Source of the DNA: Enterocloster bolteae
GTDB lineage: Bacteria; Bacillota; Clostridia; Lachnospirales; Lachnospiraceae
Length of the DNA stretch: 32,000 nucleotides
Direction: 5' to 3'
Assembly (NCBI RefSeq): GCF_002234575.2
Contig: NZ_CP022464.2
Span: forward strand, 3,119,944-3,151,943
The translations under genes were made by a program, and so were the position numbers. Below, in pieces: positions 1,997 to 14,023 of this stretch. The number at the start of each line of letters is the position of its first letter. Position 1 is the first letter of the stretch. The notes under the pieces were generated by a model. That model worked only from the letters and a program-made list of their open reading frames with translations. It did not search any database and had not been told where the DNA came from.

Positions 1997-4982
1997 CAAC
2001 ATTAAGGGTATTACTATTGAGATTGGCGGAGATACAACCAAGTTGCAAAATGCCTTAAAGGGTGTAAACGGGGACCTCAAAAGTACCAAGAATGAGTTAA
2101 AAGAGGTTGAAAAGGGCTTGAAATTAGACCCCAAGAATACCGAACTTTTAGCACAGAAACAACAGTTGCTTACAAAGGCAGTAGGCGAAACCAAAGATAA
2201 ATTAGATGTATTAAAAACGGCAGAAGCCCAGGTGGAGCAGCAGTTTAAAAACGGCGAAGCATCCGAGGAGCAGTACCGGGCAATCAAACGTGAAGTAATC
2301 GCAACGGAAGCAGAACTTAAAAACCTGGAAGAGCAAGCAAAGGCGAGTAATTCAACGCTTGCAAAGGTGGGGGATGCTTTTGGAACGGTAGGGGATAAGG
2401 CAACCAAAGCCGGGGAAAAGATGATGCCCGTAACGGCCGGAATAACCGCATTAGGAGCAGCCGGGGTTGCTGCATCTATGGAATTAGATAACGGCTATGA
2501 CACCATTATTACCAAGACGGGAGCAACCGGGGAAGCCCTGGAAAGCCTTACGACAGTAGCGGACAATGTATTTTCAGATATGCCAACTACAATGGATGAT
2601 GTGGGCGTAGCGGTTGGAGAAGTAAATACAAGGTTCGGGGCAACCGGGACAGAGTTAGAAAATCTTTCAAAAGAATTTATTAAATTTGCAAACATCAACG
2701 GAACGGATTTAAACACGGCTATTGATAGCGTGGACAGTATTATGACAAAATTCGGCGTTGATGCTTCACAGACAAAAAATGTGTTGGGGCTTATGACAAA
2801 AGCGGGCCAGGACACGGGTATTTCAATGGAAACATTGGAAACCGCACTTACAACCAACGGTGCAAGCCTTAAAGAAATGGGGCTTGATTTAACATCATCC
2901 GTTAATTTGCTTGCACAAATGGAAGCAAGCGGCGTTGATGTTTCAACCGCACTTGCCGGAATGAAAAAAGCGGTTCAGAACGCAACGGCAGACGGCAAGA
3001 GTGCAGACGAAGCATTGACCGAAACAATAGATAGCATTAAAAACGCAAAGACAGAAACGGAAGCCTTAACCATTGCATCCGACCTTTTCGGAAAGAAAGG
3101 TGCGGCGGAAATGACCCAGGCAATCCGTGAGGGGCGCTTATCCGTAGACGATTTAAGCGGTGCTTTATCAGACTATGGGGATGTGGTAAGTGACACATTT
3201 GAAACCACATTAGACCCGTGGGATGATGCAGCCGTAGCAATGAACAATTTGAAACTTGCCGGGGCAGACCTGGGAAGTTCCATTTTAACCACATTGCAGC
3301 CAACAATTGATAAGGTTGTGAACAAGGTAAAAGAGTTTACAACATGGTTTAAAAACCTGGACGACAACACAAAACAGATGATTGTAAAAATCGGAATGAT
3401 TGTTGCGGCTATCGGCCCGGCTTTAATCATATTTGGGAAAATGTCAACGGGAATATCCGGGGTAATAAAAACCGTAACGGGATTAACAAGCAAAATAGGC
3501 GGAATGAGTGGTGTTTTATCAGCACTCACGGGACCGGTTGGAATAGTGATTGCTATTATAGCGGCACTTGCCGCCGGGTTCATTGCTTTATATAAAACGA
3601 ATGATGAATTTAAAGAGAAAGTGGACGGGACCATAGGAAAGGTAAAGGATGCCTTTTCGCAGATGTGGACAACCATACAACCGCTTTTGGAGAGCCTAAA
3701 GCAAGCGTTTATTAACCTCATGGCTGCATTAAAACCCGTATTTGAATTTGTTCTTACATACATAGCAAGTATTGTAAATGGGGTTATCAATGCAGCAGCA
3801 CCGATAATTGCAGCAATCCAAAATGTGATTGATTTTGTTACCAATATCATAAATGCCATTATAGCGTTATTACATGGAGATTTTGACGGTTTCTTTTCGT
3901 ATCTGCAAGGTGCGTTTAATAGTGCAATATCGTTTGTAAAAAACATCATCCAGGCGGTTATAAATTTCATAATCGGATTTTTAGAGGGGTTCGGCGTAAA
4001 TGTAAAAACATTATTTACCAATATTTGGAATAGCATTGTTGCCGTATTCCAGGGCGTGGGTCAGTGGTTCAGTGACCGATTTACGGAAGCATGGAACGCA
4101 ATAACCACAATTTTTTCTGCAATCGGTTCATGGTTCGCCGCCAGGTGGAACGACATAAAAACCGCCCTTGCGACCGTGGCAACGTGGTTTCTTACCATGT
4201 TTACAAATGCCTATACGAATGTAACAAACGTATTCGCTACAATCGGTTCATGGTTCGCCGCAAGGTGGAACGATATAAAAACCGCCCTTGCAGCAGTAGC
4301 CACATGGTTTTTAACTATGTTCACAAACGCATACACCAACGTAACAAATGTATTTGCTGCAATTGGTTCATGGTTTGGGGCAAGGTGGACGGAGATAAAA
4401 ACCGCCCTTGCATCCGTTCCAACATGGTTTAAAACACAGTTTGATAACGCATGGACGAACATAAAAAACGCATTTGCCAATGTAACTTCCTTTTTCTCTG
4501 ATTTATGGGAGAAAATCAAGGGTTGTTTCGTAAATGTCGGTACGGCAATTGGTAGTGCGGTAAGTGATGCTTTTAAATCGGCAATCAACAGTTGCCTATC
4601 AACCATAGAGGGCGTTGTAAATAAGTTTATCGGTATGATTAACGGGGTAATTGGAATTATCAATGAGATACCGGGCGTTTCACTTTCAAAAATTGATACG
4701 CTTTCACTTCCGAGACTTGCAAAGGGCGGTGTATTAAGAGAGGGTACGGCAATGGTAGCAGAAGCCGGGCCGGAACTTTTAAGCATGGTAAACGGAAAAG
4801 CGGTTGTAACACCGCTTACGGGTTCAGCCGTAAACACGGCAGCAGACAACCTAAAGGGTAATAATGGCGGTTTCCACCAGGAAATCAATATTACAAGCCC
4901 TAAAGCCCTATCCCCTTATGAAGTGGCAAGACAAACGAGAATACAGACCCGTGCAATGGCTATTGCAATGCAGAGGGGGTAA
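1989..4982 (+). CDS. tail tape measure protein
   Basis: 997 aa counted from the GTG at 1989, which is preceded by AAGGGGGA. The N-terminus VANNIKGITIEIGGDT and a coiled-coil region are TMP-like. There is a central hydrophobic/TM block, W/F-periodic repeats, and the canonical position after the chaperones. Confidence 0.9.
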   Translation: MANNIKGITIEIGGDTTKLQNALKGVNGDLKSTKNELKEVEKGLKLDPKNTELLAQKQQLLTKAVGETKDKLDVLKTAEAQVEQQFKNGEASEEQYRAIKREVIATEAELKNLEEQAKASNSTLAKVGDAFGTVGDKATKAGEKMMPVTAGITALGAAGVAASMELDNGYDTIITKTGATGEALESLTTVADNVFSDMPTTMDDVGVAVGEVNTRFGATGTELENLSKEFIKFANINGTDLNTAIDSVDSIMTKFGVDASQTKNVLGLMTKAGQDTGISMETLETALTTNGASLKEMGLDLTSSVNLLAQMEASGVDVSTALAGMKKAVQNATADGKSADEALTETIDSIKNAKTETEALTIASDLFGKKGAAEMTQAIREGRLSVDDLSGALSDYGDVVSDTFETTLDPWDDAAVAMNNLKLAGADLGSSILTTLQPTIDKVVNKVKEFTTWFKNLDDNTKQMIVKIGMIVAAIGPALIIFGKMSTGISGVIKTVTGLTSKIGGMSGVLSALTGPVGIVIAIIAALAAGFIALYKTNDEFKEKVDGTIGKVKDAFSQMWTTIQPLLESLKQAFINLMAALKPVFEFVLTYIASIVNGVINAAAPIIAAIQNVIDFVTNIINAIIALLHGDFDGFFSYLQGAFNSAISFVKNIIQAVINFIIGFLEGFGVNVKTLFTNIWNSIVAVFQGVGQWFSDRFTEAWNAITTIFSAIGSWFAARWNDIKTALATVATWFLTMFTNAYTNVTNVFATIGSWFAARWNDIKTALAAVATWFLTMFTNAYTNVTNVFAAIGSWFGARWTEIKTALASVPTWFKTQFDNAWTNIKNAFANVTSFFSDLWEKIKGCFVNVGTAIGSAVSDAFKSAINSCLSTIEGVVNKFIGMINGVIGIINEIPGVSLSKIDTLSLPRLAKGGVLREGTAMVAEAGPELLSMVNGKAVVTPLTGSAVNTAADNLKGNNGGFHQEINITSPKALSPYEVARQTRIQTRAMAIAMQRG
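4121..4480 (+). repeat. three tandem 120-bp (40-aa) repeats inside the tape measure gene
   Basis: AATCGGTTCATGG at 4121 and 4241, and AATTGGTTCATGG at 4361. The repeated peptide is IGSWFAARWNDIKTALAxVATWFLTMFTNAYTNVTNVFA, and the third copy is more diverged. Confidence 0.85.
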
Positions 4983-7009: not shown

Positions 7010-8050
7010 ATGGCAGTAAGAGGATTTTTTTACAATTCCGTAAATAAAGACCGATTATACAACGGCCAGGATATGAACGAGGATAAAGCCCCGTTCTATA
7101 AAGAGGGCGTGGCGTATGGACATTTGCAAGTGACCGCAGACGGGGAAAGTATGGCGGTAAAGGTGGACGGCGGAAACCGTACCGGGTACGCATACATTAA
7201 CTTGCACACAATCCATAATACAACCGTCCTGGAATTACCCGTGAGCGGTTCAAACGGTACATTGCCAAGAATTGACCGTGTAATATTGCGGAATGATGAA
7301 ACAGAGCGAAAACCAAGCATTTTTATTTTAGAGGGGGCATATTCGAGTAATCCGCAGCCGCCGGAACTTACGAACAATGACACAATCCAGGAAAAATGTT
7401 TGGCGGAAATTTATGTGGCCGCTGGAGCGGTGGCAATATCCCAAAGTGATATTACAGACACCAGGGCAGACACGGGATTGTGCGGTTTCATTGCATCACA
7501 GTTTGAGGACTTTGATTTTTCACAGTTCACAAAGCAATTTAACGCATGGTTCGCCCTGGAAAAAAAGAGCATGGAACAAGACCATGCAAATTTCATTGAA
7601 GAATACGCCGAAATGACACAAGCATTTATGACGGACCAGGAAGCACAATGGAATAAGTGGTTTAAAGAGAAGCAAACGGAACTTTCCGGGGACATTGCCG
7701 GGAAACTGCAATTACAGATTGATGATGTAAAAGAAAAGGTTTACAACATTGCCTTTAAGGTTTACATCATTAGCACATTGGAGCAGATTACAAGCCCGGT
7801 AACGGTAAAACTCACAAACAAGACAACCGGGACCATGCAGACGGTTACAGTTACAAAAAGCCAAATGGGCTTTTATATCACAGAAGCCGGAGAATACACC
7901 GTGGAAGCGGATTTGGAAAGCGTTATGGTTACACCGAAAGCCTTTAAGGTTACAAACGATAATCTTATGACAACGCAGAATATTACATTGCGTGAGGGTT
8001 CAAACCTGGGCTATATCGGAAATTATATTGGTTCATTTATTGCACAATAA
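7010..8050 (+). CDS. putative tail fibre / baseplate-associated structural protein
   Basis: 346-aa ORF with an RBS (AGGAGAGGAAAAG), lying downstream of the Tal-like gene. I recognised no catalytic motif. Confidence 0.4.
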   Translation: MAVRGFFYNSVNKDRLYNGQDMNEDKAPFYKEGVAYGHLQVTADGESMAVKVDGGNRTGYAYINLHTIHNTTVLELPVSGSNGTLPRIDRVILRNDETERKPSIFILEGAYSSNPQPPELTNNDTIQEKCLAEIYVAAGAVAISQSDITDTRADTGLCGFIASQFEDFDFSQFTKQFNAWFALEKKSMEQDHANFIEEYAEMTQAFMTDQEAQWNKWFKEKQTELSGDIAGKLQLQIDDVKEKVYNIAFKVYIISTLEQITSPVTVKLTNKTTGTMQTVTVTKSQMGFYITEAGEYTVEADLESVMVTPKAFKVTNDNLMTTQNITLREGSNLGYIGNYIGSFIAQ

Positions 8051-8071
8051 AAAGAAAGAGAGGATTAAACA

Positions 8072-8566
8072 ATGGTAGGATTTCCAAAAGTAATTAAGAC
8101 AAAGGCGGATTTAGTCAACACTTACAAACTTGTAAAGAAAGGCAGATTGAAGAAAAAAGATTGGTTGGCAGCAGTTGAGAAGTTGGAAAATCAGAATTTC
8201 ATCTTTTGCCCTATCCTGGAGAAAACCGAGGATAGAAAGGGCGTTACACTTATGTTTGTAAACGAGGTTACAGAGGGGGACAAGGTAAAAGCCGGGAACG
8301 CGACCGCAACCGTTAAGACCGTGGAGCATATCGAGGTTGAAAAGGCAGCAGAAGCAGACCAGGAAGCGGCAGCAGTAGAGGGAACGGCGGCAGCAGATGC
8401 CGAAACAACCACAAATAACAATCAGACCAAGCACACAATTTTGACACTTTCAAAGGCTATTGCGGCGGATGCGGCTACAATCGGTATTCCGGCAGAAGTT
8501 ACATTTTATGACCGCCTGGGAATTACAGAAGAGGAAGTGGAGCAGATGAAAGGAGAGTTAGCATAA
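8072..8566 (+). CDS. hypothetical phage protein, translationally coupled to the DGR target gene
   Basis: 164-aa ORF with an RBS (AGAGAGGA). It has a central Ala/Glu/Thr-rich low-complexity linker. Its stop overlaps the next start (TAATG at 8564-8568). Confidence 0.4.
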   Translation: MVGFPKVIKTKADLVNTYKLVKKGRLKKKDWLAAVEKLENQNFIFCPILEKTEDRKGVTLMFVNEVTEGDKVKAGNATATVKTVEHIEVEKAAEADQEAAAVEGTAAADAETTTNNNQTKHTILTLSKAIAADAATIGIPAEVTFYDRLGITEEEVEQMKGELA

Positions 8567-9660
8567 TGGGAAGATTATTTGTTTATGACGAGAATATGAC
8601 GGACGAGAGGGCGAAAATCACAGTTGCTAAAATGGCCGCCGTATCGGACATTGTAGCGAGTGAAAAGGCGTTTATACAGTATTCCGCAGCCGGACAATTA
8701 ACCGTGCTTGCCGGGGCAGTTATTGCGGTAGGGGATGCCATTTTTCAGACCGAGGAAACAACGCTTTCAGCTGCCAACCTGGACGGTGCAAGCAGCTTTG
8801 CACACGGCAAAGATTATTACATTTACTTATGCAACAATGGCAAGGACAGTTCAAACGAGGTTTATTTAATCTCTGAAAATTCCACATTCCCGGACGGCGT
8901 GGAATGGGACGATACAAACACCCGTAAAATTGGCGGTTTCCACTATGGCTTTGTTAGAAATGTGGATGAATACGGCAGAGAAGTAAATACAAGTGGAAGT
9001 GTGCGTGGTAGCGGTTGGGAAAGTAACGTGCATGAGGACATTGCCCCTAACTCCGTATGGACCGCCTTACACCGTCCGAAGTGCGACCCGTCCGGTATGG
9101 CATACCTGGGGAATGGTTTGTGGGCTGATATTTACCTTGCATCAGATGATGGGGCGAACGGCTTACAATCTGTATATAATGCAACGCCTATTACGGGTAC
9201 AGAGGGTTTAAATTGGTATATTGCCAATGAAAAGGCTGCCCGTGTCGGAAAGCGTTTACCGGACCTTGCAGAGTGGTTAATTGCAGCAGAGGGAAGCCCC
9301 CAGGGATTAGACGGCAGCAATACAAACGGTTGGACCGCAACAACCAACACTGCAAGAACCGCCGTTGGAAAAATCAAAAATGCAATTTCTGTAAAAAACA
9401 TTATGGACATTGCCGGGAACGTGTGGGAATGGATTAACGAGTTGTGTTTAGACCCAACCGCTGCATCCTGGAATTGGTACAATGTTATGTCCGGCTACGG
9501 TCAAATTTATATGCCGTCACAAACAGCCTTGCACGCCCTCGTTGGCGGCGGCCATTGGGGCAGCGGCGTGCATTGCGGTAGCCGTGCCGTCGGTTGCAGC
9601 GATTACCCGTGGTACGTGACCGCGAGCATTGGTGTGCGGTGCGTGTGTGACAGTCTGTAA
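8566..9660 (+). CDS. DGR target protein: tail-module receptor-binding candidate with a C-terminal FGE-sulfatase/C-type-lectin-like fold carrying the VR
   Basis: The motif IAGNVWEWINE is the typical GNVWEW signature of FGE-sulfatase/CLec domains. The last 42 codons are the VR, which matches the TR downstream. The gene lies between the fibre-like genes and avd. Confidence 0.9.
   Translation: MGRLFVYDENMTDERAKITVAKMAAVSDIVASEKAFIQYSAAGQLTVLAGAVIAVGDAIFQTEETTLSAANLDGASSFAHGKDYYIYLCNNGKDSSNEVYLISENSTFPDGVEWDDTNTRKIGGFHYGFVRNVDEYGREVNTSGSVRGSGWESNVHEDIAPNSVWTALHRPKCDPSGMAYLGNGLWADIYLASDDGANGLQSVYNATPITGTEGLNWYIANEKAARVGKRLPDLAEWLIAAEGSPQGLDGSNTNGWTATTNTARTAVGKIKNAISVKNIMDIAGNVWEWINELCLDPTAASWNWYNVMSGYGQIYMPSQTALHALVGGGHWGSGVHCGSRAVGCSDYPWYVTASIGVRCVCDSL
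9525..9651 (+). repeat. DGR variable region (VR)
   Basis: 127 nt align without gaps to 10179-10305. There are 13 mismatches, and every one is at a TR adenine (10 A->G, 2 A->C, 1 A->T). Confidence 0.92.
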
Positions 9661-9667
9661 TCTGCCA

Positions 9668-9687
9668 GGGTGGGCGAAAGCCCACCC
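9668..9687 (+). promoter_or_regulatory. GC-rich hairpin (8-bp stem, GAAA loop) downstream of VR; candidate DGR target-recognition element
   Basis: GGGTGGGC-GAAA-GCCCACCC forms a perfect stem. It starts 16 nt after the VR/TR homology ends. No T-run follows, and no equivalent hairpin follows TR. Confidence 0.7.
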
Positions 9688-9719
9688 CATAGAAAAATAT
9701 ATAAACCGAGGATAAAAAC

Positions 9720-10109
9720 ATGGCAGAGAACAAGAAAAGCAATCAAGCGGATGCGTATATGGAGAGCATGAAAGCGTATCAAAAGACCTATGATTTTCTT
9801 TTATACCTTTATCCCATATTGTCACAGTTTCCGAAATTTGAGAAATTCGCATTGCAGAGCCAAATTAAAACGGCGGTTTTTGAAATGCTTAAATCAGTAA
9901 TCAGATTTAGAAAGACCGGGACAAAGAGCCATATATATAACGCAGATGTAGAGTTGCAGTTTATCAAAACCCTCATACGGCTTTCCTACGATTTGGAATA
10001 TCCGGCAATGAGCAAACACAGATACGAAGTATTGAGTAAGAAAATGACAGAATTAGGATGTATCATTGGCGGAATAATCGAAGCCGTAAAGAATGGAAAT
10101 TGGAAATAA
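9720..10109 (+). CDS. avd: accessory variability determinant (Avd-like four-helix-bundle protein)
   Basis: 129-aa basic helical protein with RBS GAGGA 7 nt upstream. The motif YQKTYDFLLYLYPILSQFPKFEKFALQSQI is typical of the four-helix-bundle (23S rRNA IVS-like)/bAvd family. It sits between the target gene and TR. Confidence 0.8.
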   Translation: MAENKKSNQADAYMESMKAYQKTYDFLLYLYPILSQFPKFEKFALQSQIKTAVFEMLKSVIRFRKTGTKSHIYNADVELQFIKTLIRLSYDLEYPAMSKHRYEVLSKKMTELGCIIGGIIEAVKNGNWK

Positions 10110-10178
10110 TGTTGGCATTGCCAATTTTATTTTGGGGAAACTGTTAATATGCACCGGGCCAGTTCACGGAACTTTCCG

Positions 10179-10305
10179 AGCCTTGCACGCCCTCATTGGC
10201 GGCGGCAATTGGAACAACGGCGTGCATTGCGGTAGCCGTGCCGTCAATTGCAACAATTACCCGTGGAACGTGAACACGAACATTGGTGTGCGGTGCGTGT
10301 GTGAC
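10179..10305 (+). repeat. DGR template repeat (TR)
   Basis: This is the invariant partner of VR. It contains 27 adenines, including nine AAY codons in the VR reading frame. The 3' 21 nt (10283-10303) contain no adenine. Confidence 0.92.
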
Positions 10306-10466
10306 TTTACAATTTTATAGACATAGAAGCCCAAGCGGCCACTAGCAAAGATTTACATTTTTTAAGTAAGTCAGACGGTTTGCCCGTTCCGGTGTGATAC
10401 CGGACAAACTAACAAAGCAAACCACCTTTTAGTAAAATAGAATATTTGAAAATTGGTAGGGATTAA

Positions 10467-11507
10467 ATGAAAACAGTAAAGGGACTACATGAGAAAATGG
10501 GGACCTTTGAAAATGCCAATACTTCATTCCACCAGGCGGCCAAGTGCAAGCGGTACACGGATGAGGTATTGGCTTTTTCTATGGTTAAGGAAGAGGAACT
10601 TTTAAGAGCAACCGAGGAAATACAGAATTTAACATATAGGCAAGGGGAATATAAGATATTTAAGGTGTTTGAGCCAAAAGAACGGCTTATTATGGCGTTG
10701 CCGTTCTATGATAGAGTGGTGCAACACATGATTTGTAACGCTATTCAACCCGTATTTGAGAACGGATTTTATTACCATTCTTACGCTTGCCGGACCGGTA
10801 AGGGGATGCACGCCGCAAGTGATACATTGTATCAATGGATGTATGAAACAGAGGTTAAACAAGGGTTAAGGATGTATGCCTTTAAAGGGGACATATCAAA
10901 GTATTTTGCATCTATACCACATGACAAATTAAAGGATGAAAACCGCCGCTATATAGGGGATAAGAAAGCCCTTATGTTAATGGACGATATTATAGACCAC
11001 AACGGCATATTGCCGGACGGCGTGGGAATACCCGTTGGAAACCTCACAAGTCAGTTATTTGCGAATGTGTACGGCAATAAGTTAGATAAATTTTGCAAGC
11101 ACGTTTTACATATTCCGTATTTTGTGCGGTACATGGATGATTTTATTATCCTATCGGATGATTTGGAGCAGTTGAAAGAATGGGTTAAGAGAATAGAAGA
11201 ATTTTTGGAAAATGAAATGCTTTTGCATATTAACCCTAAAAGCACAATCCTATACGCTGGGAATGGCATAGATTTTTGCGGATATATCCACTATGCAGAC
11301 CACAAGAAAGTAAGAAAATCATCTATCAGAAAGTTAAAGCAAGATGTAAAGGCGTATGAGTTGGGCGAATTGCCGCCGGAAGAATTTAACCGGAAGTACG
11401 AAAGCAGAAAGGGACATTTAGGACACGCCGACACATACCACATTGCAAAGGCGGTTGAATACGAATTGTTGTTCTATGAATGGGAACGCCTGGAAGCAGC
11501 GGCGTAA
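10467..11507 (+). CDS. DGR reverse transcriptase
   Basis: The motif VRYMDDFIILS is the YxDD catalytic motif. IPVGNLTSQLFANVY carries the xGNxxSQ signature characteristic of DGR RTs. The protein is 346 aa and lies directly downstream of TR. Confidence 0.9.
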   Translation: MKTVKGLHEKMGTFENANTSFHQAAKCKRYTDEVLAFSMVKEEELLRATEEIQNLTYRQGEYKIFKVFEPKERLIMALPFYDRVVQHMICNAIQPVFENGFYYHSYACRTGKGMHAASDTLYQWMYETEVKQGLRMYAFKGDISKYFASIPHDKLKDENRRYIGDKKALMLMDDIIDHNGILPDGVGIPVGNLTSQLFANVYGNKLDKFCKHVLHIPYFVRYMDDFIILSDDLEQLKEWVKRIEEFLENEMLLHINPKSTILYAGNGIDFCGYIHYADHKKVRKSSIRKLKQDVKAYELGELPPEEFNRKYESRKGHLGHADTYHIAKAVEYELLFYEWERLEAAA

Positions 11508-11577
11508 AAGGGTCAGAATAAAAAGCCGTTCCATTATATGATTTACTTGTAAAAAACAAGGAAAGGAGCATGGAACA

Positions 11578-12006
11578 ATGGAGAAAATGTTTAACTTTAT
11601 TTCCGTGATTGGTGGATTGGTTGGCGGTTTTATCGTTTCGTTGTTCGGCGGTTGGGATGTGATGTTATACACAATATTGCTTTTTGCTATCCTGGATTAT
11701 TTCACGGGCATTTTGAAAGCAGTCTATAAAAAAGAACTTTCAAGTGCAATCGGATTTAAGGGGATTGTAAAAAAAATCATGGTATTTGTGGTTATCGCAG
11801 TTGCCTACAACGTGCAGAGAATGACCGGGGACACAATACCATTAAGGGAAATTGTTATTGTTTTCTTTATCTGCAATGAAGCACTTTCTATTTTGGAAAA
11901 TGCGGCGGAATTTATCAACATACCGCAGCAGTTAAAAGATGTGCTTTTGCAGTTAAGGGACAAGAACGCAGCGAAAGCGGAAGAAAAAGAAGAAAGCGAG
12001 GAATAA
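11578..12006 (+). CDS. phage holin (holin_4 / toxin-secretion-lysis holin type)
   Basis: 142 aa with three hydrophobic segments and a charged C-terminal tail (KNAAKAEEKEESEE). It lies immediately upstream of the endolysin. Confidence 0.75.
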   Translation: MEKMFNFISVIGGLVGGFIVSLFGGWDVMLYTILLFAILDYFTGILKAVYKKELSSAIGFKGIVKKIMVFVVIAVAYNVQRMTGDTIPLREIVIVFFICNEALSILENAAEFINIPQQLKDVLLQLRDKNAAKAEEKEESEE

Positions 12007-12009
12007 GAC

Positions 12010-12954
12010 ATGGCAACAAAAGACCAGGTAAACGCCTTTATTGCGAAATTGGCAGCAATTGCAAGAAAAGAATATTTAACCCGTGATAAATGGGTTTTAC
12101 CGTCCGTATGTATCGCACAGGCAGCATTAGAAACCGGGTGGGGAACATCCGGGCTTATGACAAAAGCCAATGCGTTTTTTGGCATCAAGGCCGGCAGCAG
12201 TTGGAAAGGCAAGGTTTACAGTAGCAAAACAAACGAGTGCTATGACGGCAAGACCTACACGCAGATTACCGCCGCTTTCCGTGCTTATGATAGCCTGGAA
12301 GAGAGTGTGGCGGATTATTACAATCTGATTTGCGGAAGTTCCCGTTATGCCGGAGCGGTAAACAACGGAAACGCCGAAAGTGCCATTACCGCAATCAAAA
12401 ACGGCGGATATGCAACAAGTCCTACATACATCAAGAATGTAATGAACATCATCAATTCTTACAACCTTACACAGTATGACACATGGGACGGAGAGAACCA
12501 GGGACCGGCAAACAAGGAAACCCACGGTTACAAGGTGGGGGACAAGGTAAGAGTGATTGATAACATCACATACAACGGGGTGCGTTTCGCAACCTATTAT
12601 GATGAATATGATGTTATCCAGGTAAACGGGGACCGTGTTGTTATCGGTATCGGTAACACCGTGACGGCAGCAGTAAACGCCGCCAACATTGCAAAGGATG
12701 AAGAGATTGCAGAAGCCCCGGCGGATGCGGAAACACCAACCGACATTCCGACCCAGGAAGAAACAGAGAACGCCCACGGTTTCAAGGTAGGGCAGAAAGT
12801 AAAGGTTATCAATGCTTATGATTACTACGGTAATATGTTTAAGTGTTGGTACAGTAAATATGATGTTATCGAGGTTAAGAATGACAGAATTGTTATTGGT
12901 ATCGGTAGCACCGTAACGGCAGCAGTAAACGCCGCCAATTTAGCAGCAGCATAA
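12010..12954 (+). CDS. endolysin: N-terminal glucosaminidase (mannosyl-glycoprotein endo-beta-N-acetylglucosaminidase) domain plus two C-terminal SH3-like wall-binding repeats
   Basis: The motif AQAALETGWGTS is typical of the glucosaminidase/FlgJ-C family. Two ~57-aa repeats (HGYKVGDKVRVID... and HGFKVGQKVKVIN...) are encoded at nt 12523-12693 and 12775-12945. Confidence 0.85.
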   Translation: MATKDQVNAFIAKLAAIARKEYLTRDKWVLPSVCIAQAALETGWGTSGLMTKANAFFGIKAGSSWKGKVYSSKTNECYDGKTYTQITAAFRAYDSLEESVADYYNLICGSSRYAGAVNNGNAESAITAIKNGGYATSPTYIKNVMNIINSYNLTQYDTWDGENQGPANKETHGYKVGDKVRVIDNITYNGVRFATYYDEYDVIQVNGDRVVIGIGNTVTAAVNAANIAKDEEIAEAPADAETPTDIPTQEETENAHGFKVGQKVKVINAYDYYGNMFKCWYSKYDVIEVKNDRIVIGIGSTVTAAVNAANLAAA

Positions 12955-13050: not shown

Positions 13051-13064
13051 TATTTTAAAAGATT

Positions 13065-13142
13065 TTTAAAATAGTACGGAATATGTGTTGACATAGTACG
13101 GAATATGTAATATAATAAAGACAGTTAAGAGAGGAACACAAA
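13065..13142 (+). promoter_or_regulatory. consensus sigma-70-type promoter P1 with two direct operator-like repeats (copy 1 of a 78-bp repeat)
   Basis: TTGACA (13088-93), a 17-bp spacer, then TATAAT (13111-16). ATAGTACGGAATATGT occurs at 13071-86 and 13093-108. Confidence 0.7.
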
Positions 13143-13160
13143 GAAAGTGAGGAAAAGAAA

Positions 13161-13575: not shown

Positions 13576-13907
13576 CCGCCCGGCAACTAAAACGGCCACA
13601 CCGTGAACGGGTGCGAGTGTCCCAAGCCACTATAAACCGTTGAGGGGTTGCAACAATAGGCGTTGCGGTACTGTCTGACAAGTTTTGACCCACGTTTTAA
13701 TGTGAAACGGGGAAGCAATGAGGAATACACCGGGCAAGGGTGCATTGCTTATATACACAATCGTTTAGACCAATGCCCGGAAACCCAAAACGCCTATATG
13801 ATGCAACTATATATTGAAACCCGTTGTTTCTGTGATTTTATCAATGGTAAATACACGCACTTTTAAGCCTGGCACATTCCGCCGGGCTTATTGCACATAA
13901 AAATAAA

Positions 13908-13985
13908 TTTAAAATAGTACGGAATATGTATTGACATAGTACGGAATATGTTATATAATAAAGACAGTTAAGGGAGATACACAAA
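13908..13985 (+). promoter_or_regulatory. promoter P2 (copy 2 of the 78-bp repeat)
   Basis: TTGACA (13931-36), a 17-bp spacer, then TATAAT (13954-59). ATAGTACGGAATATGT occurs at 13914-29 and 13936-51. About 5 mismatches to copy 1 at a fixed offset of 843 bp. Confidence 0.7.
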
Positions 13986-14023
13986 CTTAATGAGTAATGG
14001 GCAAGCATAGAAAGGAGAACTTT

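Follow-up and report, generated by a model that had tools for sequence, protein, structure and literature searches.

What keeps the far end of a mutagenic template free of adenine, and what would that end be for? The question is posed by a diversity-generating retroelement (DGR) in a 32,000-nucleotide (nt) window of Enterocloster bolteae DNA (contig NZ_CP022464.2, positions 3,119,944 to 3,151,943; coordinates below are those of the window). A repeat at 10179-10305 resembles a second repeat upstream of it, and near its 3' end carries a stretch devoid of A. An original prediction, made from the letters of the window, had taken this stretch for a segment of the kind that directs initiation of mutagenic homing (IMH) and must stay invariant. 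The comparison of related loci set out here argues that 10179-10305 is very probably the template repeat (TR) of an active DGR of the type known from phage BPP-1, diversifying the tail protein of a prophage at its receptor-binding tip. It also points to selection on the nucleic acid, and not solely on the protein scaffold, as the source of adenine avoidance in the stretch and at synonymous sites of the TR.

Template design and the adenine-free end

The cassette runs in the order Mtd-homologous target, variable repeat (VR), GAAA-loop hairpin, bAvd, TR, 161-nt spacer and DGR-type reverse transcriptase (RT). Its repeats and genes are as follows.

8566-9660, + strand: DGR target gene, coding for a tail/receptor-binding protein that is homologous to BPP-1 Mtd over its full length and has the VR at its C-terminus
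9525-9651, + strand: VR, the recipient, inside the target open reading frame (ORF); 13 differences from the TR
9720-10109, + strand: avd, accessory variability determinant (Pfam bAvd 3e-25; PHROG 'Avd protein of DGR' 2e-27)
10179-10305, + strand: TR, the invariant donor, with 27 adenines and nine AAY codons
10467-11507, + strand: DGR reverse transcriptase (Pfam RVT_1 1e-19; PHROG reverse transcriptase 4e-116)

TR and VR form a 127-nt direct repeat that aligns gap-free at 90% identity. All 13 differences lie at TR adenines, where the VR has G, C or T; for sites placed at random, with 27 A in 127 nt, the probability of this is about 1e-10. This pattern, with the full cassette around it, bears out the identification of the repeat as a DGR template. 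Read in the frame of the VR (ORF 8566-9660), the TR gives (R)ALHALIGGGNWNNGVHCGSRAVNCNNYPWNVNTNIGVRCVCD, the leading R codon (CGA, 10177-10179) being just one-third within the repeat. Exactly nine codons are AAC or AAT, as had been counted at the outset; they hold 18 of the 25 adenines between 10187 and 10282, and each can reach 15 amino acids. These codons alone allow 15^9 = 3.84e10 theoretical protein variants, in agreement with the earlier arithmetic (about 3.8e10), and counting in the other seven codons with an A that precede the adenine-free block raises the figure to about 6e14. No change of an A in the adenine-bearing codons of the TR (CAC, ATT, AAY, CAT, AGC, TAC, ACG and GAC) yields a stop.

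A search of the window for a second VR found none. An ORF of 75 aa (10093-10320) spans the TR, starting within the 3' end of avd; it bears no sign of a gene and is an artefact, the TR having inherited the reading frame of the VR.

Scans of IMG/VR and GTDB yielded 21 + 2 loci with this RT, most about 99% identical, and a profile scan yielded 80 further loci with RT identity down to 54%; 60 related loci, carrying 60 distinct VRs, were used for the comparison of TR with VR. The RT family is abundant in metagenomes, one cluster at 90% identity having 4022 members. Family-wide, 698 of 715 differences (97.6%) lie at TR adenines and 17 at non-A positions; the adenines have become G (419), T (170) or C (109). 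The TR is identical in 10 of the 20 related-locus copies compared, whereas the VRs differ. Among loci with an identical TR and an RT about 99% identical, each VR is different; these come from different metagenomes and one cultured isolate. Fifteen loci share essentially the same TR and have 15 distinct VRs, in which all 18 AAY adenines vary, each in 2-12 of the 15. The ATT and ACG codons had been expected to add variation, and they do, being changed in 5-6 of these 15 VRs. Changes at the non-AAY codons were distributed thus.

A at 10187, codon CAC: changed in 2/15 VRs
A at 10195, codon ATT: changed in 5/15 VRs
A at 10226, codon CAT: changed in 0/15 VRs
A at 10234, codon AGC: changed in 1/15 VRs
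A at 10259, codon TAC: changed in 4/15 VRs
A at 10276, codon ACG: changed in 5/15 VRs
A at 10282, codon ATT: changed in 6/15 VRs

A template that is constant among copies whose recipients vary is, at the level of the population and as read from sequence, the signature of ongoing mutagenic retrohoming.

Two individual loci deserve separate description. In the VR of L018 (about 3191-3192 of that locus), an ATT of the TR has become GAT: the T at the first base of the block has changed beside a mutated A. Positions 1-180 of L014 (= L027; IMG/VR contig 3300008547_000129) begin with 7 nt of the upstream flank of a VR; a VR-like, A-substituted repeat body with two non-A changes then runs into the downstream flank of a TR and on to the RT, with no avd in between. 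The two parts join at the end of the contig, within the common A-free block. Most likely this is an assembly chimera; a real recombination between VR and TR, with deletion of avd, is less likely.

The adenine-free block itself is present in both repeats.

10283-10303, + strand: A-free block of the TR, TTGGTGTGCGGTGCGTGTGTG, encoding the final strand of the lectin fold, (I)GVRCVC(D); homologue of BPP-1 TR 99-119
9629-9649, + strand: A-free block of the VR, identical to 10283-10303; corresponds in position to (GC)14 in the IMH of BPP-1

It consists of 11 G, 8 T and 2 C, and thus is GT-rich. The absence of A and the identity of the two copies were confirmed, but the description of the block as the last 21 nt of the repeat was not quite right: the repeat extends two bases past it (A10304, C10305), so that its last 21 nt include one A. 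An A-free run in a single sequence is weak evidence: shuffling the mononucleotides of the TR gives one of at least 21 nt in 11% of cases, and 11 are found on the + strand of the window. Comparative evidence is therefore used in what follows.

Twelve versions of the block occur in the 60 loci, among them TTGGCGTGTGGTGCGTGTGTG, TTGGCGTGTGGTGCGTCTGTG, TTGGCGTCTGGTGCGTTTGTG, TTGGCGCTCGTGGGGCGTGTG and CGGCGTGCGGGGCGCGTGTG. All are A-free over 20-23 nt, to an RT identity of 54%, and all keep the ending TGTGAC. To account for them, at least 12 substitutions are needed at block positions 2-21, and not one produced an A. Some change the protein (R/W, C/G, V/A), still without introducing an A; the amino-acid sequence is therefore not what is held fixed. 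The block has four fourfold-degenerate third positions, at which C, G and T are used across lineages and A never; over the whole TR frame, A occupies 0 of 19 such positions, versus 29% in the rest of the gene (P about 0.0015, from 0.71^19). Mutation of an A at the third position of a Gly or Val codon would leave the protein unharmed, so the lack of such adenines argues for selection at the level of the nucleic acid. The A directly 5' of the block is changed in 27 of 60 VRs, and the A of the terminal GAC, 3' of it, in none of 60.

What, then, is invariant? Within an element and its population, the block stays the same in donor and recipient, as had been supposed: the VR copy matches the TR copy in 57 of 60 loci, and the three mismatches are each at the first base. 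Across homologues the statement fails, since the sequence drifts. Variation of the block among homologues had been named in advance as a sign against the idea; it is present, yet the lack of A and the TGTGAC ending are kept, and as a yardstick such variation would wrongly reject a correct idea. The term 'IMH-like' likewise needs qualification. The block is the positional homologue of the BPP-1 (GC)14 segment and of the site where cDNA starts there, but it is not a whole IMH. The original interpretation is thus partly supported, right in spirit and imprecise in form.

The recipient flank, the spacer RNA and the predicted cDNA start

A block that is identical in TR and VR is unable to distinguish recipient from donor. 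In BPP-1 the IMH lies at the 3' end of the VR and comprises (GC)14, which the TR shares unchanged, and 21 bp that differ from the TR at five positions and set directionality (PMC3240598). A hairpin 4-34 bp downstream, with a GC-rich stem of 7-10 bp and a GRNA tetraloop, is required for efficient homing (PMC3240598). Where IMH and IMH* are identical, recognition must extend downstream, as described by Wu et al. (PMC5758913). The VR considered here has candidates for both downstream functions.

9652-9667, + strand: VR-specific segment AGTCTGTAATCTGCCA, which includes the stop codon (9658-9660) and has no counterpart after the TR
9668-9687, + strand: target-recognition hairpin/cruciform GGGTGGGC-GAAA-GCCCACCC, with an 8-bp GC-rich stem and GRNA tetraloop, 16 nt past the repeat; absent from the TR

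Similarity of TR and VR ends abruptly after GAC. Since the block is the same in both, directionality would reside in 9652-9667 and the hairpin, and 9652-9667 would correspond to the 21 bp that set directionality in BPP-1. The first part of the IMH is seen here in form, as a 21-nt A-free block common to TR and VR, though GT-rich; a segment found in the VR alone also exists, at 9652-9667. Within that segment the motif CTGTAA/CTGTAG is conserved across lineages, partly as coding sequence. Folded as DNA, the 71-nt stretch 9640-9710 has a minimum free energy of -11.2 kcal/mol (z = -3.8), and no shuffle folded as well. The hairpin is present in 27 of 27 distinct family sequences and in BPP-1 (28 sequences), with compensatory changes in six of seven pairs and loops that are GAAA or GGAA, in one case AAAA. 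Stem, loop and distance fit the reported ranges (PMC3240598).

RNA structure on the donor side was tested on a 29-sequence alignment of real, contiguous family sequences. The elements are these.

10134-10145, + strand: upstream RNA strand GGGGAAACUGUU, in the gap between avd and TR; pairs with 10374-10385; homologous to the strand that avd contributes to the 'cPRT Stop' duplex of BPP-1
10301, + strand: predicted first templated cDNA base, G10301, the middle G of the Cys codon TGT; equivalent to BPP-1 TR G117
10302-10306, + strand: UGACU, the TR strand of the predicted template:primer duplex; invariant in 29/29 distinct family sequences
10324-10344, + strand: covarying hairpin UAG..GCC / GGC..CUA, 5' part of the spacer RNA; both-side changes in 5/6 pairs
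10369-10373, + strand: spacer motif AGUCA, within invariant AGUCAGA, a homologue of BPP-1 Sp52-58; complementary to UGACU
10374-10385, + strand: GACGGUUUGCCC, spacer strand of the cPRT-Stop-like duplex, directly after the AGUCA motif
10388-10404, + strand: spacer stem-loop UCCGGUG-UGA-UACCGGA, then CAAAC; equivalent of the BPP-1 stem-loop at spacer (Sp) positions 71-78 and its unpaired adenosines

The proposed structure pairs in 88.9% of cells of the alignment, versus 30-53% when partners are slid by 1-3 columns. Changes on both sides of a pair occur in 13 pairs and 74 cells, as against 3-9 pairs and 6-25 cells in the slid controls, and the observed covariation score was reached by none of the shuffles. 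The upstream:spacer duplex is found in every lineage, in compensatory versions that include GGGGUAGCUGUU:GACGGCUAUCCC, GGGGCAGCUGCUU:GAGCGGCUGUCCC and GGGGCAAUACCUU:GAGGUAAUGCACCC; in L029 a mismatched pair of the duplex has been deleted from both strands. The upstream strand lies within a fully conserved intergenic block. Compensatory changes are also seen in the stem-loop at 10388-10404 (L017, L019 and others). AGTCAGA is invariant in all spacers, to 54% RT identity, within a non-coding region that has otherwise diverged. For the hairpin at 10324-10344, no counterpart was found in those sections of the BPP-1 papers that were consulted.

The BPP-1 system allows these elements to be assigned roles. 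There, cDNA is primed from spacer A56, and the first templated base is TR G117 (PMC6182149, PMC5703328). In the cryo-EM structure, TR118-129 is paired with Sp47-56, TR118-121 pairing with Sp53-56; the avd369-379:Sp59-70 duplex ('cPRT Stop', AGGGCAGGCUG:CGGUUCUGUCCU) follows, and then a short stem-loop and unpaired adenosines (bioRxiv 10.1101/2023.10.23.563531). The BPP-1 codons AAC AUC GGG GCG CGC GGC GUC UGU GCC align with AAC AUU GGU GUG CGG UGC GUG UGU GAC here; from this codon-for-codon alignment, BPP-1 G117 is the middle G of the common Cys codon, which is G10301. Given that positional homology (PMC6182149) and the conserved UGACU:AGUCA pairing, cDNA would start at G10301. A10373 is predicted to be the priming adenosine, equivalent to Sp A56, and G10374 the equivalent of Sp G57. 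The duplex 10134-10145:10374-10385 would take the stop role. In BPP-1 the VR keeps GAC where the TR has GCC, which shows that transfer stops before that codon; a stop at that place would explain why A10304 never varies.

A sequence of events can be proposed on this basis. RNA from about 10130 to about 10440 would fold around the RT-Avd complex. Strand 10134-10145 would pair with spacer 10374-10385, a pairing backed by covariation and presumably a stop, and the repeat end UGACU (10302-10306) with the invariant AGUCA (10369-10373). A10373 would then prime cDNA in cis, with G10301, by homology, as the first templated base; the RT would copy the 19 A-free bases from 10301 to 10283 faithfully before misincorporating opposite the 25 upstream adenines (10187-10282), in the nine AAY codons and in ATT, ACG, TAC and others. 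The A-free block would thus supply an unmutated, first-made cDNA end that matches VR 9629-9647 exactly and could serve as a homology anchor. Two features that follow the VR alone, 9652-9667 and the GAAA hairpin (9668-9687), would mark the VR, not the TR, as recipient; the cDNA would replace the VR; and A10304, placed 3' of the start site, would never be copied.

Several other pairings were considered and set aside. An outer stem GGUUUG/CAAAC around the spacer hairpin was dropped, as the changes in L017 and L019 are non-compensatory. The pairing CGGAAC (10167-10172):GUUCCG (10386-10391), taken from a suboptimal duplex, was rejected: L018, L019 and most other lineages have lost its upstream part. 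A long imperfect duplex of the whole A-free block with 10369-10396 (-23.9 kcal/mol) was not adopted, as it competes with the covarying stem-loop; the family data back just the short UGACU:AGUCA contact. A template:primer duplex longer than 5-6 bp was likewise not retained, the extra complementarity (for example UGACUAAUCA versus UGAUAAGUCA in L032) being inconsistent across lineages.

In the spacers of L048-L055, L076 and L073 (alignment A2, columns ~295-327), a GC-rich hairpin, for example GACGGCC-GAAA-GGCCGUU, is inserted in the spacer strand of the stop duplex; a three-way junction is predicted, with both pairing halves retained.

Protein scaffold, relic or active element

One way to account for the block is to locate its constraint in the protein: it would be A-free solely for the sake of the invariant scaffold residues G-V-R-C-V-C, with no IMH, priming or homology role. 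The block does align with the conserved Mtd C-terminus IGARGVC, and every one of its codons can be written without A. Moreover, selection of this kind is at work in the TR, where CAT (10225-10227) and AGC (10234-10236) vary rarely or never, as real purifying selection on the protein would have it. Protein constraint cannot readily reach silent sites, however, and there A is avoided too, both at the four fourfold sites of the block and at the 19 of the TR frame; nor does it explain residues that change (R/W, C/G, V/A) and never acquire an A in doing so. The homologous BPP-1 segment is in addition shown by experiment to be needed for homing and to hold the cDNA start (PMC3240598, PMC6182149). 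As a complete account the scaffold is thus improbable; the two explanations are compatible, and the scaffold one is partly true. A different reading makes the DGR a decayed, inactive element, in which the TR/VR differences are historical and the block is the least diverged part of an old duplication. From one TR/VR pair, indeed, current activity cannot be shown. The family leaves this reading with very little probability: a relic does not present 15 different VRs beside essentially one TR, with all 18 AAY adenines changed, or place 97.6% of 715 differences at adenines. Nor would it be expected to keep RT, avd and target ORFs intact, the YMDD motif included, and non-coding RNA elements that covary under purifying selection.

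An active BPP-1-type DGR is therefore the preferred reading, but a number of observations weigh against it or against parts of it. The A-free run is, by its length, nothing that shuffling does not produce. GVRCVC is a conserved structural strand, and protein constraint accounts for part of the conservation of the block; the constancy of A10304 may equally well reflect selection for Asp. The UGACU:AGUCA helix is without variation, so that conservation and homology support it and covariation does not; UGAC is also under coding constraint, as Cys-Asp. A primer that pairs better with VR than with TR, as proposed by Naorem et al. (PMC5703328), was looked for and not seen: here the TR offers 5-6 bases and the VR only 4. 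Finally, no promoter stands out upstream of the TR, where a scan gave 7 promoter-like sites against 8.7 expected.

The prophage setting and relation to known retroelements

The proteins of the cassette place it with BPP-1. The product of 8566-9660 matches Pfam mtd_2nd (7e-30) and FGE-sulfatase (4e-11) and a PHROG tail protein (1.5e-69). Against Mtd in the PDB (1YU4; E=4e-14) the alignment reaches the C-terminus, IGVRCVCDSL versus IGARGVCDHL, and homology to the solved structures 1YU0-1YU4 covers residues 30-364; by sequence, the protein is assigned an Mtd second domain and a C-type-lectin/FGE-sulfatase fold. Avd is 27% identical to BPP-1 Avd/Bbp7 (BLASTP, E=4e-10), and the RT is 35% identical to BPP-1 Brt over its full length (337 residues, E=1e-60). 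RTs of the DGR clade are marked by (I/V/L)GxxxSQ in motif 4 and by a YxDD catalytic motif; this one has IPVGNLTSQLF (VGNLTSQ) and RYMDDF (YMDD). The RT, avd and target ORFs are all intact.

The neighbourhood is that of a phage, with a tail gene of the Sipho_Gp37 family upstream and holin and endolysin genes downstream. The RT gene recurs at 99% identity, together with flanking DNA, on a 1.19-Mb contig of Clostridiaceae bacterium Marseille-Q4145 (JAGTTP010000002.1, about 513.7-522.8 kb), a locus read as a prophage of a gut Clostridia isolate. In a distant blastn search of GenBank phages the 2.9-kb cassette found no match, so no named phage can be assigned, and an Rfam scan of the whole window at the gathering threshold matched no family and no curated DGR RNA model. 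A scan of 8000-12100 for promoters and terminators gave counts equal to the shuffle expectation and is uninformative.

Other features of the region may be recorded. A terminator-like hairpin, GTTGGCATTGCCAAT with a T-run (10111-10125), lies between the avd stop and the conserved upstream RNA strand; it is not conserved among relatives, and the scan count does not exceed chance. Direct repeats of 98 nt (13057-13154 and 13900-13997), 87% identical and 843 nt apart, each carry the hexamers TTGACA and TATAAT with 17 nt between them, a promoter close to consensus. Each also has ATAGTACGGAATATGT twice: one copy stops right before the -35 hexamer, the other begins within it. The repeats look like a repeated operator/promoter unit of a prophage regulatory region. 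A 20-nt, 90% complementary copy at 11106-11125 (- strand), inside the RT gene, may be due to chance. Within the endolysin (12010-12954, with a glucosaminidase domain) a segment of about 170 nt is duplicated in tandem (12521-12693 and 12773-12945, 78-83% identical), presumably giving two C-terminal cell-wall-binding repeats.

How far does the likeness to BPP-1 extend? The gene order (target-VR, hairpin, avd, TR, spacer, RT) is the same, and the target is homologous to Mtd along its full length and shares its C-terminal motif. Both TRs contain AAC/AAT codons in tandem and an A-free 3' segment ending in the same Cys codon; after TGTGAC comes a GC-rich GAAA-loop hairpin, at 17 nt in BPP-1 and 16 nt here. 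In the spacer, AGUCAG (10369-10374) is the counterpart of GUCAG at Sp53-57 (GGUCA56-G57). The priming A of BPP-1 lies 69 nt from the homologous C, its predicted equivalent here 68 nt, and in both elements an upstream:spacer duplex is followed by a short stem-loop and adenosines. The differences are of detail and of setting: BPP-1 is a podophage of Bordetella, whereas the element described here sits in a prophage of Gram-positive gut Clostridia. The BPP-1 block is GC-only, this one GT-rich. In place of a 21-bp IMH/IMH* stretch with 5 mismatches, TR/VR similarity here halts two bases past the block. The BPP-1 TR has UGCC, where UGAC here pairs perfectly with GUCA. The spacer stem has 2 bp and a UUCG loop there, 7 bp and a 3-nt loop here; the upstream duplex strand lies inside avd there, and in the avd-TR gap, 33 nt before the TR, here.

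All of these features are textbook DGR biology: the AAY-rich template, the A-free constant 3' end and the GRNA hairpin are already known (PMC5758913). The value of the locus is as a clean natural example, in which one cultured lysogen and dozens of metagenomic copies have the same template and different tail tips. In addition, the family alignment yields exact predictions (primer A10373, first template base G10301, stop duplex 10134-10145:10374-10385), which bear on whether the cis-priming of BPP-1 extends to DGRs of Gram-positive phages. On balance, and by a modest margin of belief, the core of the BPP-1 RNA may be conserved in sequence between a Proteobacteria phage and a large, abundant family of DGRs in gut Clostridia phages; it would consist of the priming motif (A/G)GUCA|G, initiation on the middle G of the last Cys codon and the stop duplex of upstream and spacer strands. 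In that case the cDNA start could be located by reading the sequence, and with it the precise 3' boundary of diversification. The requirement on (GC)14 would then be a requirement for absence of adenine and not for GC content; the GT-rich block suggests that homing needs just this at that end.

Beyond BPP-1 the element is in familiar company. DGR prophages are reported to be common in gut Clostridia, including the DGR-rich prophages of Faecalibacterium (PMC11792537, PMC8241571). The Eubacterium rectale DGR (Guo et al. 2011, Fig. 5) is alike by description in its tail-protein C-type-lectin VR, its Avd and its GRNA-loop hairpin (PMC3240598). The CLec-type DGRs surveyed by Wu et al. (2018 NAR 46:11) have adenines at codon positions 1 and 2, with AAC very common, and an IMH that encodes constant 3' amino acids, the 3' boundary of mutagenesis lying directly upstream of it (PMC5758913). 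From these the present element shows no qualitative difference, and it belongs among the 34% of DGRs in which a high-confidence inverted repeat follows the VR (PMC5758913).

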